Of a stretch of DNA of 64,000 nucleotides, positions 33,599 to 37,544 are shown one piece after another. Origin of the DNA: Bdellovibrionota bacterium. GTDB lineage: Bacteria > Bdellovibrionota_G > JALEGL01 > DATDPG01. The DNA is taken from the NCBI GenBank assembly GCA_963668355.1, contig OY764265.1:288111-352110 (forward strand). The letters are read 5' to 3'. The stretch's first letter is position 1, and every line of letters begins with the position of its first letter. A program made the translations under genes and the position numbers. A model generated the notes under the pieces. It made no database searches. It saw nothing but the letters and a program-made list of their open reading frames with translations, and was not told where the DNA came from.

Positions 33599-33635
33599 GG
33601 TGCGACTCCGCTACAAATGGCGTCCCCAAGGGGAC
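33599..33635. repeat. direct repeat containing the 3'-terminal ~17 nt of tRNA-Glu (att-like), copy a
   Basis: ggtgcgactccgctacaaatggcgtccccaaggggac. The tggcgtccccaagggga portion is identical to the 3' end of the tRNA-Glu gene at 37467-37544. Confidence 0.6.
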
Positions 33636-34025
33636 AACCTGAAAATTGATGATAGCCCGAGCCGAAGGGGTACCCAGTAACGCTGGGTCTGAGGCGAGAT
33701 CTTTGCTGGTCTACGAACGCGAGTTCGTGAACTTCAAGTGTCGCTGGCATAGCGACACTCTTACAAAGAGCGAGGCGCGGGTGCCCTCTGGGCAGCGACG
33801 AGTCTCCCTAGAAGAACTCGAGCGCGGCTAGCGCGACAAATTTTCGAACTGAGTGTATGAGGTTGCCGGCCTAATACTGCCAAGTTCGAGCAATTAAAGA
33901 CTGTTTTTACATTAACTGACTTTATCGACCCCGACTGATATGGTCGCTGCACAAAAAAGACTCGTTGGCCCCCTGCCCCTTCCTTCCCGGAGCCCCCTGC
34001 CTCTTTCTTGTAGAACGGTATCAAC

Positions 34026-35216
34026 ATGACAAACCAAACTATAAATGTACTTCAAGTGGCGACCCTCAATCGGCCTATTCGAAAAGACTTGGGCTACGGA
34101 CCCATCGAAACAGTGATTTACAACATCGATCAAGGATTGCACGAGTTGGGGCATCGTTCGATTGTGGCTTGCTCAGGAGACTCTTGTGTATCCGGCGAGC
34201 GATATACAACCATCAAAAAAAGTTTTAGCGAATACTGGAGTAAGAATACGTCCGCCCAAAAAGAGAGCAGTCGTCGGCACCTCACCATGTCGCTCGAGAG
34301 AGCCAGCCGAGGTGACATTGATATCATCCATATGCACGACGCCGCGATGGTCGAATACATTTTTAAAGGAGTGTTAAAAAGCCCGGTTCCCATCGTCATG
34401 ACCCTTCACGTTCCCGCGGAAGAAAAGGGTTCGTTCAAGCGCTGGAATGAAACCTTAACTCCTGCCTCGAAAGTATTTTTCGTCCCCATCAGTGAATTCC
34501 AAAAAAACCAGAATCATGGCTTAGTCAACCTCCAGGAGGTGATCCACCATGGAATTGATATAAAAGACTACCCTTTCAACGACGCCCCCCAGAACGATAA
34601 CTATCTGTTCACGATTGGAAGAGTCACGCAGGACAAAGGACAGGACAAATCCATCGAAGTCGCTAAGCGCAGCAATTCGAGACTTGTTATTGCCGGAAAT
34701 GTTCAGAATAAATCAAAAGACAGGGCATTCTTTAAAACGTTAGAGCCTTCGATCAACCTTTCGATTGATGCAAGCGAAAATCCCGGCGACGACAACTATT
34801 ACGACGAGGTCATCAAACCGGTTTTGGAATCCGGCCTACAGATCATTTATATTGGAGAAATCAATAGCGCCCAAAAAATGCATTGGTATCGCCATGCGCA
34901 AGCTACCCTATTTCCCATTCAGTGGGGAGAACCGTTCGGCTTGGTCTTAGTCGAATCGATGGCCTGTGGCACGCCGGTCCTAGCTCTCAATCGAGGGTCT
35001 GTACCTGAAATTATCCTAGACCGAGAAACGGGTTTCATCGCCGATTCCATCGATGAAATGGTCGAACATGTACAAGACATTTCTCGCATTGACCGTCATA
35101 TCTGTCGGCTCCATATCCAAGACCATTTTTCGATCGCGAGCATGGCAAAAAAATACTCACAATTGTACCAACAGATTCTGGTTGAAAGGGCTTCATGCCA
35201 AAAGACATCCCCGTAA
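34026..35216 (+). CDS. GT4-family glycosyltransferase
   Basis: 396 aa. EPFGLVLVESMACGTPVLA is the GT4 E-x7-E region. Confidence 0.85.
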   Translation: MTNQTINVLQVATLNRPIRKDLGYGPIETVIYNIDQGLHELGHRSIVACSGDSCVSGERYTTIKKSFSEYWSKNTSAQKESSRRHLTMSLERASRGDIDIIHMHDAAMVEYIFKGVLKSPVPIVMTLHVPAEEKGSFKRWNETLTPASKVFFVPISEFQKNQNHGLVNLQEVIHHGIDIKDYPFNDAPQNDNYLFTIGRVTQDKGQDKSIEVAKRSNSRLVIAGNVQNKSKDRAFFKTLEPSINLSIDASENPGDDNYYDEVIKPVLESGLQIIYIGEINSAQKMHWYRHAQATLFPIQWGEPFGLVLVESMACGTPVLALNRGSVPEIILDRETGFIADSIDEMVEHVQDISRIDRHICRLHIQDHFSIASMAKKYSQLYQQILVERASCQKTSP

Positions 35217-37165
35217 GCAACGGGTCTCTGCTTTTGAATTTTGATTCGGATTATCAAATTCGAGATGTCTATTTTCCTTTTGTTGGACAAGAAAACCATT
35301 CTAAAGGACACCCCTTTCGGTTTGGCGTGTGGGTAGATGGTCAATATTCTTGCATGGATTCGGATTGGAAAAAAGATTTAAGATACCATGACGAGAGTCT
35401 TGTTACAGATGTCAGGCTAAGCCATGATATTTTAGGATTGGAGCTTCACTGTTCCGACGTCGTCGATTTTGATTTAAACATTTATATAAAAAAATTAGAG
35501 GTGATCAACCTCCAAGCCAAGCCCCGCCAGGTCAGGCTCTTTTTCAGCCATGATTTTTATCTCTATGGAAATGATATCGGAGGGACAGCCTACTTTGACC
35601 CGAGAAGCTGCTCCATCATTCACTACAAAGTCCATCGCTATTTTTTAATGAGTAGCTGGGCCCATGGCAAATGGGGAGTGCAGCATTATTCTTGCGGAAG
35701 AAAAGATACTCCAGAAGGCCTAGAAACAGGGAAGGAAGTTTCGAGCGGAGAACTGAATGGAAATCCTTCGGCTTGGGGCTCTCCTCATTCCACCCTTGGC
35801 ATTTGGTTAAACTTACCCCATCGTGGAAAGGAAACGGCCTATTACTGGATGGCAGCTGGAACCACCTACGCGCAGGTCGCAAACCTCAACTTGGAAGTCC
35901 ATCAGATCACACCGAAAAAACTCATTCAACGCTCACACAAATATTGGGAAGCATGGGTGCAAAAAGATTCCTTGCCGATCGAAGGCCTACCCAAAGCTGT
36001 GACCGATGTGTTTAGCCGTAGCCTGCTGATCCTCAGAACTCAGATTGATAATCATGGAGCCATTATCGCGGCCAATGACTCTGACATTGTTCGTTTCGGA
36101 AAGGATACGTACTCCTATATGTGGGGAAGGGACGGTGCTTTTGTCGCTGCGGCCTTAGCCAAGGCCGGACAATCTCACCTCTGCATGAAATATTTTAATT
36201 TCTGCGCCCGTATTCTGTCCGACGAAGGCTACCTCTTTCAGCATTACAATCCCGACGGTTCGCTCGCCAGCAATTGGCACCCTTGGTTAGTCGACGACAA
36301 AGAAGTGCTGCCCATCCAGGAGGATTCAACCGCCCTCACGATTTGGGCGCTTTGGGAGCATTACCAAAGCTTGCAAGACGTGGAATTCATTCGCCCCCTC
36401 TACAAAACGCTGATCAAAAAGGCCTCCCATTTCCTAGTTAGTTACCGTGACCCGGAGACATTACTCCCCTTACCCTCCTATGATCTTTGGGAGGAGCGCT
36501 ATGCCGTGCACACATATACCGTGGCTACCGTTATCGCTGGCCTTAGAGCCGCAGCGAATTTCTCCCGACTGTTTCACGATACGGCCCTTGCCCAAGATTA
36601 TGAGCGCGTGGCGGACGAAATGACAAACGGAATAACGAAATATCTTTATCACAACCGCCTAAATCGCTTTGCTCGATCCGGCAACCGAACCGAAAACGGC
36701 TATAGACTGAACGAAGTCATCGATGTAAGCCTCCTGAGCTTAGCCACTTTCGGTATCATGGACGCCAAAGATGCAAAGATGGCCAGGACGGCTGATGCCA
36801 TACACAAAGCACTCTGGCTTAAGACACCCGTCGAAGGTCTAGCCCGTTACGAAAAGGATGTTTATCAACTGGAGGCGGACAGTCCGCCGAACGTTCCAGG
36901 AAATCCCTGGTTCATTTCAACGCTTTGGTTAGGTGAATATTTCATCGAAAGAGCGCGGAATCGCAAAGAATTGAAAAAAGCGCTTCCCTACCTTGAGTGG
37001 TGCGTGAGAAACGCTCTTCCTTCAGGCGTGTTTGCCGAACAGGTACACCCGGTCAAGGGCTCTCCCCTCAGTGTTTCTCCTTTGACCTGGAGCCATTCCG
37101 CCTTTGTTTGGACCGTTCTGCGATACGTCGAAAAGTATAAGTCCTTGGCTTCCCCTGGGCCGTGA
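35195..37165 (+). CDS. GH15-family glycoside hydrolase (glucoamylase/glucodextranase/trehalase-like)
   Basis: 656 aa. N-terminal beta domain plus an (alpha/alpha)6 catalytic domain, with YMWGRDGAF and LWEERY-type motifs. Confidence 0.8.
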   Translation: MPKDIPVSNGSLLLNFDSDYQIRDVYFPFVGQENHSKGHPFRFGVWVDGQYSCMDSDWKKDLRYHDESLVTDVRLSHDILGLELHCSDVVDFDLNIYIKKLEVINLQAKPRQVRLFFSHDFYLYGNDIGGTAYFDPRSCSIIHYKVHRYFLMSSWAHGKWGVQHYSCGRKDTPEGLETGKEVSSGELNGNPSAWGSPHSTLGIWLNLPHRGKETAYYWMAAGTTYAQVANLNLEVHQITPKKLIQRSHKYWEAWVQKDSLPIEGLPKAVTDVFSRSLLILRTQIDNHGAIIAANDSDIVRFGKDTYSYMWGRDGAFVAAALAKAGQSHLCMKYFNFCARILSDEGYLFQHYNPDGSLASNWHPWLVDDKEVLPIQEDSTALTIWALWEHYQSLQDVEFIRPLYKTLIKKASHFLVSYRDPETLLPLPSYDLWEERYAVHTYTVATVIAGLRAAANFSRLFHDTALAQDYERVADEMTNGITKYLYHNRLNRFARSGNRTENGYRLNEVIDVSLLSLATFGIMDAKDAKMARTADAIHKALWLKTPVEGLARYEKDVYQLEADSPPNVPGNPWFISTLWLGEYFIERARNRKELKKALPYLEWCVRNALPSGVFAEQVHPVKGSPLSVSPLTWSHSAFVWTVLRYVEKYKSLASPGP

Positions 37166-37180
37166 TGACCATATATGTAT

Positions 37181-37221
37181 GGTGCGACTCCGCTACAAAT
37201 GGCGCCCCCAAGGGGATTTGG
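37181..37221. repeat. direct repeat containing the tRNA-Glu 3' end, copy b
   Basis: ggtgcgactccgctacaaatggcgcccccaaggggatttgg. Preceded, like copy a, by tgaccata. Confidence 0.6.
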
Positions 37222-37435
37222 CCAATTTTCCCCTGGCCTTCGGCCAGATGAAAAATGTGGCATAAGAATCTCTAATTCGCTTTGCTCATAAGAGCTTCTA
37301 AAACCCCACGGGGTTCGTCGCCTTTCGGCGACAGACTTGTGTTGAGCAAAGAGCCCCACCCATTTCATGGGTCCCCGGTTCTCTTTGTTCTATTGCTATG
37401 GCAAGTTCAAATCCCCTCTTAAAAATGACAAACTA

Positions 37436-37464
37436 AAAAGCCCATCCGAAGATGGGCTTTTTAG
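37436..37464 (-). terminator. rho-independent terminator (bidirectional-looking) just 3' of tRNA-Glu
   Basis: AAAAAGCCCATC-cgaa-GATGGGCTTTTT. Confidence 0.55.
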
Positions 37465-37466
37465 TT

Positions 37467-37544
37467 TGGCGTCCCCAAGGGGATTTGAACCCCTGTCGCC
37501 GCCGTGAAAGGGCGGTGTCCTGGACCGGGCTAGACGATGGGGAC
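37467..37544 (-). tRNA. tRNA-Glu (anticodon UUC)
   Basis: Manual fold: acceptor GTCCCCA/TGGGGAC, anticodon stem CCGCC/GGCGG, loop CTTTCAC, T-arm AGGGG-TTCAAAT-CCCCT, discriminator G and encoded CCA. Confidence 0.85.

Follow-up and report, generated by a model that had tools for sequence, protein, structure and literature searches.

Introduction

Tandem accretion at tRNA genes and cis-mobilizable elements (CIMEs), first described in Streptococcus (Pavlovic et al. 2004; Bellanger et al. 2011), have been reviewed (PMC5704250). In Dehalococcoides, tandem islands at ssrA, the tmRNA gene, are bounded by 20-bp repeats and involve a serine recombinase of ~540 aa, and 15 of them are without an integration module; the sublocation classes of tRNA target sites are mentioned in the same paper (McMurdie et al. 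2011, PMC3146451). Here we describe a locus of this kind in an uncultured, deep-branching member of the Bdellovibrionota (assembly GCA_963668355.1, contig OY764265.1, positions 288,111 to 352,110). The whole stretch of 64,000 nucleotides (nt) is referred to as the window, and all coordinates are given in it unless another locus is named. The segment 33596-37466 is probably a genomic islet without an integrase, situated at the 3′ end of a tRNA-Glu gene and produced by two successive site-specific integrations, with a GT4 glycosyltransferase and a GH15 glycoside hydrolase as its cargo. The islet is a clear and ordinary case of a known kind, and it reveals no new mechanism. It is a clean example of a small metabolic operon that has lodged at a tRNA gene and persists once the recombinase is lost.

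The islet resembles a CIME in that att-like repeats are kept on both sides in the absence of integration or transfer genes, and in that another segment bounded by repeats adjoins it in tandem at the tRNA 3′ end. As far as its sequence can tell, it matches a CIME or the fixed remnant of one. It differs in that its neighbour is a 245-nt remnant and not a functional partner element, and in that its host belongs to an uncultured deep-branching lineage and is not a Firmicute. The likeness to the Dehalococcoides islands lies in the serial 3′-end repeats that bound tandem islands of metabolic cargo, many without an integration module, and in the extra conserved bases that adjoin the repeat. However, the target of the islet is tRNA-Glu instead of the tmRNA gene, no serine recombinase is present in the window, the conserved extension is on the opposite side of the repeat, and the cargo consists of sugar enzymes instead of reductive dehalogenases.

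Classical P4-type tRNA islands share with the islet the intact tRNA gene that is adjoined and the distal direct repeat of the tRNA 3′ part, and the repeat of 17-22 nt fits a crossover at the T-loop or at the 3′ end. The islet departs from them in lacking an integrase and any compositional deviation, and its 3.6 kb are far under the typical size. The sublocation classes of tRNA-linked islands reportedly go back to Williams in 2002. In staphylococci, pseudo-SCC (staphylococcal cassette chromosome) elements are recombinase-less cassettes with short direct repeats that are stacked at one site, the 3′ end of rlmH. Recombinase-less cassettes with short direct repeats stacked at one attachment site are also what we describe here, but the likeness is an analogy only, and those cassettes sit at the end of a protein-coding gene whereas the islet has a tRNA gene as its target.

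Direct repeats of the tRNA-Glu 3′ end bound the islet

The intact tRNA-Glu(TTC) gene, the putative integration target, is located at 37467-37544 on the minus strand with its CCA encoded (ARAGORN; Rfam tRNA, 60.2 bits), and its upstream partner tRNA-Lys(TTT) is at 37619-37693 on the same strand (ARAGORN and Rfam). A direct repeat of 39 nt was found at 33596-33634 (copy 1) and 37178-37216 (copy 2). The two copies are 3582 nt apart and identical at 37 of 39 positions (95%), and in each, 22 bases foreign to the tRNA stand ahead of a 17-nt stretch that is the reverse complement of the tRNA-Glu 3′ terminus. An earlier sequence-only reading of this DNA had described direct repeats of the tRNA-Glu 3′ end with a 19-nt extension, a segment between them that encodes GT4 and GH15 only, and a second repeat about 245 bp from the tRNA. 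All three statements were borne out, the gene content by open reading frames (ORFs) and Pfam and the gap at 245 nt. The repeat itself extends 3 nt further leftward than described, and its 22-nt non-tRNA part equals the 19-nt extension plus these 3 nt.

Copy 1, the distal att-like site, opens, when read on the minus strand, with the 17 terminal nt of tRNA-Glu, CCA included (33634 to 33618, an exact match), and continues into the 22-nt extension. Copy 2, the proximal att-like site, occupies 37178-37221 on the same strand and contains the 22-nt extension and a 22-nt tRNA-Glu 3′ fragment with 2 mismatches; its resemblance to the tRNA extends to 37220, with 20 of 21 nt matching over 37200-37220. 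The 17-mer of the tRNA 3′ end occurs three times in the window, at 33618 (0 mismatches), at 37200 (1 mismatch) and at 37467 in the tRNA itself, and all three serial copies are co-oriented with tRNA-Glu. No shuffled sequence reached three or more such matches. The 24-mer GGTGCGACTCCGCTACAAATGGCG, which runs from the extension into the tRNA fragment, was found exactly twice, at 33599 and 37181, compared with none in 100 shuffles. Even when up to 3 mismatches were allowed, the 19-nt extension was found at these two sites only. The one mismatch of copy 2 to the tRNA 17-mer is an A-to-G change, which is expected to preserve the acceptor-stem pairing as G-U and would fit a tRNA imitation borne on the attachment site attP of an element. 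The two differences between copy 2 and the tRNA, taken together, are likewise what might be expected if an element carried an imitation of the tRNA end.

Copy 2 also retains a T-arm-like hairpin with an enlarged loop, a feature that would favor a tRNA-Glu gene in decay. It is nevertheless highly improbable that the repeats are decayed extra tRNA-Glu genes, or that they belong to a family of dispersed repeats that has nothing to do with integration. No tRNA-like sequence was found in the copies upstream of the fragment of 17-22 nt, while downstream of CCA they have the 22-nt extension in common (21 of 22 positions), which is absent from the intact tRNA; this is the reverse of what gene decay predicts. 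A dispersed family is contradicted by the rarity of the extension, which occurs twice in 64 kb and in 0 of the 99 fetched loci, and the repeat had no match in IMG/VR.

Between the repeats there are only the overlapping GT4 and GH15 genes. Copy 2 begins 12 nt past the GH15 stop codon, and the stop codon of a GGDEF diguanylate cyclase gene (32648-33592, plus strand; Pfam GGDEF, E = 5e-41), the distal chromosomal flank of the islet, is 3 nt ahead of copy 1. In the direction of the tRNA, the order is the intact tRNA, a 245-nt spacer, copy 2, the cassette, copy 1 and the end of the GGDEF gene.

A short motif, (a)tgaccata, is present at 33575-33582 and at 37166-37173. It falls within the last codons of the GGDEF gene near copy 1 and directly past the GH15 stop codon near copy 2. 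The sequence-only reading had placed it before both copies, where it is indeed found, but its spacing differs, 16 nt for copy 1 versus 7 nt for copy 2. A chance match is unlikely by a rough post hoc estimate, and it may be that the duplication was longer at first and was later altered by an indel.

The spacer between copy 2 and tRNA-Glu

The 245-nt spacer (37222-37466, minus strand) contains the tRNA terminator, an inverted T-loop copy and several tetraloop hairpins, and is flanked by a 21-nt repeat pair at 37200 and 37467 with 20 of 21 positions identical. The terminator was located by a terminator scan at 37429-37468 and has an 18-bp stem. The fold of the spacer is much more stable than that of shuffled sequence, z being -7.0 when the terminator is included and -4.75 when it is left out (204 nt, 37222-37425), and the latter part holds several GC-rich tetraloop hairpins on the minus strand. 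On the plus strand at 37405-37417, 50 nt past the tRNA 3′ end, 13 nt (GTTCAAATCCCCT) repeat the T-loop region of tRNA-Glu exactly in inverted orientation, and they pair with the tRNA fragment of copy 2 in the predicted fold. No ORF of the spacer had a Pfam match. No Rfam family reached its gathering score in the islet or the spacer, and the sub-threshold matches were to the terminator hairpin alone. The segment 37222-37425 could be a small RNA, a cluster of hairpin repeats or a remnant of attP.

tRNA-Glu is an integration site in a relative

In the nearest syntenic relative (locus L099), whose purA product is 63% identical to that of the window, the topA-to-purA synteny is kept and the tRNA-Lys/tRNA-Glu pair is downstream of purA. 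There, the gene of a 537-aa large serine recombinase reads into the tRNA-Glu 3′ end, which encodes the last 13 codons of the recombinase, and the 13-nt tRNA-Glu terminus GTCGGGGACGCCA occurs again 5.57 kb downstream. A 5.6-kb element at tRNA-Glu (15458-21118 of that locus) is bounded by this 13-nt repeat and does not carry the GT4-GH15 cassette. Its recombinase of ~540 aa reads toward the target gene, and the layout resembles the DsiB module of Dehalococcoides. The Lys-Glu tRNA pair is also present in a more distant relative (L086), in which tRNA-Glu and a tyrosine integrase gene with a frameshift are 85 nt apart. Judging from these sequences, an element occupies the tRNA-Glu 3′ end as its integration site in the first relative, and an integrase pseudogene abuts this end in the second.

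XerC (44730-45836) was the sole recombinase found in the window, by Pfam on the ORFs around the islet. Its gene is next to trmFO and topA, 7 kb from the islet, and the gene order topA-trmFO-xerC-dnaJ-dnaK-serC-serA-purA is kept gene for gene in the two nearest relatives found, with the XerC proteins of the window and L099 being 57% identical. The XerC of the window is a housekeeping gene. No other recombinase or remnant of one was detected in the window or the islet, either by Pfam in all ORFs of the islet segment or by tblastn with the L099 serine recombinase and the tyrosine integrase of a further locus, L081, described below; the tblastn search found no large serine recombinase in the window.

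The earlier statements that no integrase is present and that the nearest Xer-type recombinase is 7 kb off in a housekeeping context thus agree with Pfam, tblastn and the topA-to-purA synteny. The proposal of sequential integration at tRNA-Glu, leaving an integrase-less islet, is supported both by its premises and by the comparison with other genomes, but the tyrosine-recombinase type that went with it was an assumption. A tyrosine-only reading was set aside because the element at tRNA-Glu in L099 has a serine recombinase. Tyrosine integrases and large serine recombinases are both present at tRNA sites in relatives, and either class may have acted on the islet.

The same cassette in tRNA-bounded segments elsewhere

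A metagenome scan with GH15 gave 7 loci, and the cassette survey comprised 12 independent loci with the window included. At 5 of these 12 loci the GT4-GH15 pair falls within a segment that has a tRNA gene as one boundary and a direct repeat of a portion of that tRNA as the other. As a control, 80 purA loci (1.27 Mb, 55 tRNA genes) were examined, and none had a tRNA-fragment repeat (5/12 versus 0/80, Fisher p = 1.6e-5); the repeats in the control were only whole duplicate tRNA genes. The segment of the window (tRNA-Glu, 39-nt repeat, 3.6 kb) has no recombinase. The segment of L081 at tRNA-Thr is 11.4 kb long with a repeat of 47 nt exact (54 nt at 96%), and an intact tyrosine integrase gene and an HTH_17 gene adjoin the tRNA. 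Those of L082 (tRNA-Lys, 40-nt repeat, 12.4 kb), L096 (tRNA-Arg, 44-nt repeat at 91%, 12.1 kb) and L089 (tRNA-Ser, 178-nt repeat at 94%, 4.5 kb) are without recombinase homologues, leaving the tyrosine integrase of L081 as the recombinase in one of the five segments. The repeats of the five segments begin at three different tRNA positions.

The 178-nt repeat of L089 begins in the anticodon arm, is AT-rich with reiterated GTAAA(C) motifs, and brackets GT4-GH15 alone. Over 8056-15952 of that locus, the order is a displaced 41-nt 5′ half of tRNA-Ser, the module bounded by the 178-nt repeat, a segment with a thaumatin-like gene, and the intact tRNA. The two tandem modules open with an identical 165 nt, and an additional 20-nt 3′ repeat, its copies 740 nt apart start to start, is found beyond the intact tRNA. 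No recombinase was found inside 22 kb of this locus.

The overlapping GT4/GH15 junction is kept across loci, with an overlap of 22 nt in most. Nucleotide identity between loci is ~70% and is confined to the coding region. No conserved non-coding flanks were found between cassette loci, and therefore a shared attP is not definable. The tRNA-fragment signature was not seen at the remaining loci (L084, L086, L090, L092, L093, L095 and L097), some of which are near insertion sequence remnants, dispersed repeats or defence genes.

The occurrence of one GT4-GH15 pair in tRNA-bounded segments at five tRNAs (Glu, Thr, Lys, Ser and Arg) is a more useful result than the locus itself, and this recurrence marks the pair as frequently transferred adaptive cargo. 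For annotators, it is a reason to seek tRNA-fragment repeats even where there is no integrase.

The larger islands with the same cassette (L081, L082 and L096) measure 11-12 kb, and one of them has an integrase beside the tRNA. Together with decay being the usual published path to integrase-less islands (PMC5704250), they would fit a single integration of an integrase-bearing island of 11-12 kb in the window, reduced by internal deletions to GT4-GH15, with the spacer formed by local rearrangement. We consider this history unlikely. The deletion would have to halt 12 nt from the proximal repeat and leave the repeat intact, the 21-nt pair 37200/37467 (20/21) around the spacer is itself a signature of the integration type, and L089 independently has a cassette-only module bounded by repeats.

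An origin that is not site-specific, by local duplication or by a cargo swap through homologous recombination, would make the pair a long-resident operon whose proximity to the tRNA is incidental. We regard it as very unlikely, even though the composition and codon usage of the pair are host-like, no recombinase is present, and the atgaccata before both copies is a hint of a gapped duplication of greater length that took in the GGDEF end. Such an origin would not account for a repeat that is exactly the tRNA 3′ terminus ending in CCA, in tRNA orientation and in three serial copies. Nor would it account for the same cassette being bounded by tRNA fragments at four other tRNAs, for the use of tRNA-Glu as an attachment site in L099 or for the tyrosine integrase pseudogene that abuts it in L086.

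Several other observations were made at the surveyed loci. In L092 (5080-11965), GT4 and GH15 are 3.7 kb apart, with two Crp-family regulators and a response regulator between them; hence the pair is not always an overlapping operon. In L086, many dispersed repeats of 30-110 nt, 80-99% identical and both direct and inverted, are present on both sides of GT4-GH15 (5876-8293 and 12115-13587) and have the appearance of miniature repeat elements. The GGDEF and Band_7 genes beside the cassette in L097 (Omnitrophota) were considered as a conserved linkage and rejected, their products being not orthologues of those in the window (35% and 26% identical). Repeats of the tRNA end were also seen 179 nt past an intact tRNA-Asn in L097 (5950-6371) and 722 nt past tRNA-Ser in L089 (15193-15952). 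Like the 245-nt spacer of the window, both of these short scars enclose terminator-like hairpins, and mini-scars beside tRNAs may be common.

Proposed history of the islet

On the sequence evidence we propose that the islet arose in two steps. In the first, a circle carrying GT4-GH15 would have integrated at the 3′ end of tRNA-Glu by recombination in a core of ~39 nt common to both, made up of the last 17 nt of the tRNA and ~22 nt downstream of it. This would have duplicated the core, with copy 1 placed by the GGDEF gene and the second copy at that time still within the tRNA. In the second step, another element would have recombined with the last ~21 nt of the tRNA, displacing the first junction by 267 nt to become the present copy 2 and bringing in the present terminator of the tRNA. 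Of this second element, 245 structured bases would remain. Neither segment has a recombinase gene, and therefore mobility from here on would depend on a recombinase provided in trans. Alternatively, the shared extension might be the common left end of related elements, with a third element beyond copy 1, by analogy with the tandem modules of L089; no further repeat was found beyond copy 1 in the window.

Several points weigh against two successive integrations. No empty site was found, and the nearest relatives are distant (purA 63-66%, GGDEF 46%) and lose synteny at purA. In a search of 5.8 billion proteins, the next-best GGDEF protein was 46% identical and the best purA relative 66%; in species-representative genomes, purA relatives were at most 57% identical among the matches listed. 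The two contigs closest by purA are syntenic with the window only up to that gene. The islet contains no recombinase remnant. The GC content, GC content at third codon positions (GC3) and codon usage of the cargo are indistinguishable from those of the host, and the cassette looks native. An old acquisition sits poorly with a non-coding repeat that is 95% identical, unless the repeat has been maintained. The extension, present in copies 1 and 2 but not at the tRNA, demands either an unusually long core of 39 nt or a related element past copy 1. Finally, the cassette fills the islet nearly edge to edge (12 nt from the GH15 stop codon to copy 2), which is unlikely to result from random deletion in a larger island.

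Codon usage had been put forward as a check on the cargo, and neither it nor the GC content revealed a deviation. The GC content of the islet is 0.42-0.52 compared with ~0.5 in its surroundings. GC3 of the two cargo genes is 0.529 and 0.521, against a mean of 0.539 (standard deviation 0.047) for 44 long ORFs of the window, and in codon usage they are at distances of 0.143 and 0.112, the mean of the same set being 0.157 (standard deviation 0.036). This host-like composition means that the acquisition was old or from a similar donor, and it argues against a recent arrival from a dissimilar one. Because there is no empty site, the composition is host-like and no recombinase is present, our confidence in the integration model is limited, and we hold two successive integrations to be probable and no more.

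A further possibility is that GT4-GH15 is a recurrent, self-contained cassette with attachment sites of its own that is moved among tRNA sites by recombinases acting in trans, as an analogue of an integron cassette. This would explain why cassette-only, repeat-bounded modules are found in two unrelated genomes, the window and L089, and why the pair is 70-78% conserved across phyla when purA reaches 66%. We think it quite unlikely. An actual integron cassette was rejected: no IntI is present, the sole tyrosine recombinase being the syntenic XerC, the repeat is derived from a tRNA, and no imperfect inverted repeat like attC was seen.

The cargo genes

The first cargo gene (34026-35216, plus strand) encodes a GT4 glycosyltransferase of 396 aa with the Pfam domains Glycos_transf_1 and Glyco_transf_4. 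The second (35195-37165, plus strand) encodes a GH15 glycoside hydrolase of 656 aa (Pfam Glyco_hydro_15), and the two genes overlap by 22 nt. The closest solved relative of GT4 is the glucosylsucrose synthase TeGSS (PDB 7fg9/8x3q, E = 4e-38); the enzyme in these entries has been identified as TeGSS (PMC9909042). The alignment covers nearly the full length of GT4 (residues 8-386), and by this full-length similarity GT4 would be assigned to the TeGSS family (E = 4e-38). No sucrose-phosphate synthase gene adjoins the cassette in the window, L081 or L082.

The best NCBIfam match of GH15 was 'oligosaccharide amylase', with 308 bits and under the family cut-off, and GH15 is more remotely related to glucoamylases and archaeal trehalases. 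Its homologues, found on roughly 6,700 contigs, number in the thousands at 70-78% identity, from sources whose names include Omnitrophota, Nitrospira, Thermodesulfobacteriota, Dadabacteria and Spirochaetia. Within the same genome, the best purA relative is 66% identical, versus 70-78% for GH15 across many phyla. A conservation of GH15 that exceeds that of purA suggests that GH15 has spread horizontally, that it is under very strong constraint, or both. GH15 had no relatives in IMG/VR, and plasmids gave a single distant GH15 at 26% identity; hence there is no evidence of carriage by phages or plasmids.

In other genomes, the neighbours of the cassette include genes for a cold-shock protein, RRM-type RNA-binding proteins, a fatty-acid desaturase, and sensor kinases and response regulators. 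Since cold-shock, RNA-binding and fatty-acid desaturase genes are among these neighbours, the pair is probably tied to stress protection. Our best guess from homology and gene neighbours is that the cargo probably makes and degrades a stress-protective sugar of the glucoside type, with GT4 acting as the alpha-glucosyltransferase and GH15 as the degrading enzyme.

The leader and the gene neighbourhood

A non-coding leader of 390 nt (33635-34025, plus strand) precedes GT4 and contains a 9-bp hairpin and a C/T-rich repeat pair. The hairpin noticed in the sequence-only reading exists, but its position had been given as 33745-33767 and is actually 33737-33759, 8 nt away. The fold of the leader is weakly unusual (z = -2.1). 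The leader is not kept at other cassette loci and belongs to no Rfam family. Small ORFs of the leader and the spacer had no credible Pfam match, the ORF at 33965-34228 giving a sub-threshold one (E = 0.005). Two C/T-rich repeats of 18 nt, GCCCCCTGCCCCTTCCTT and GCCCCCTGCCTCTTTCTT, are located 24 nt apart at 33968-34009, directly upstream of the GT4 start, and no obvious ribosome-binding site was seen at the usual distance from this start.

Two paralogous Ribosomal_S30AE hibernation-factor genes were found within 6 kb of each other, at 24735-25094 and 30313-30753, both on the minus strand. Genes for a GGDEF protein, a Band_7 (SPFH) protein and a LysR regulator are alongside or just past this pair, and the grouping of Ribosomal_S30AE, GGDEF, Band_7 and LysR genes suggests a stress or dormancy neighbourhood.

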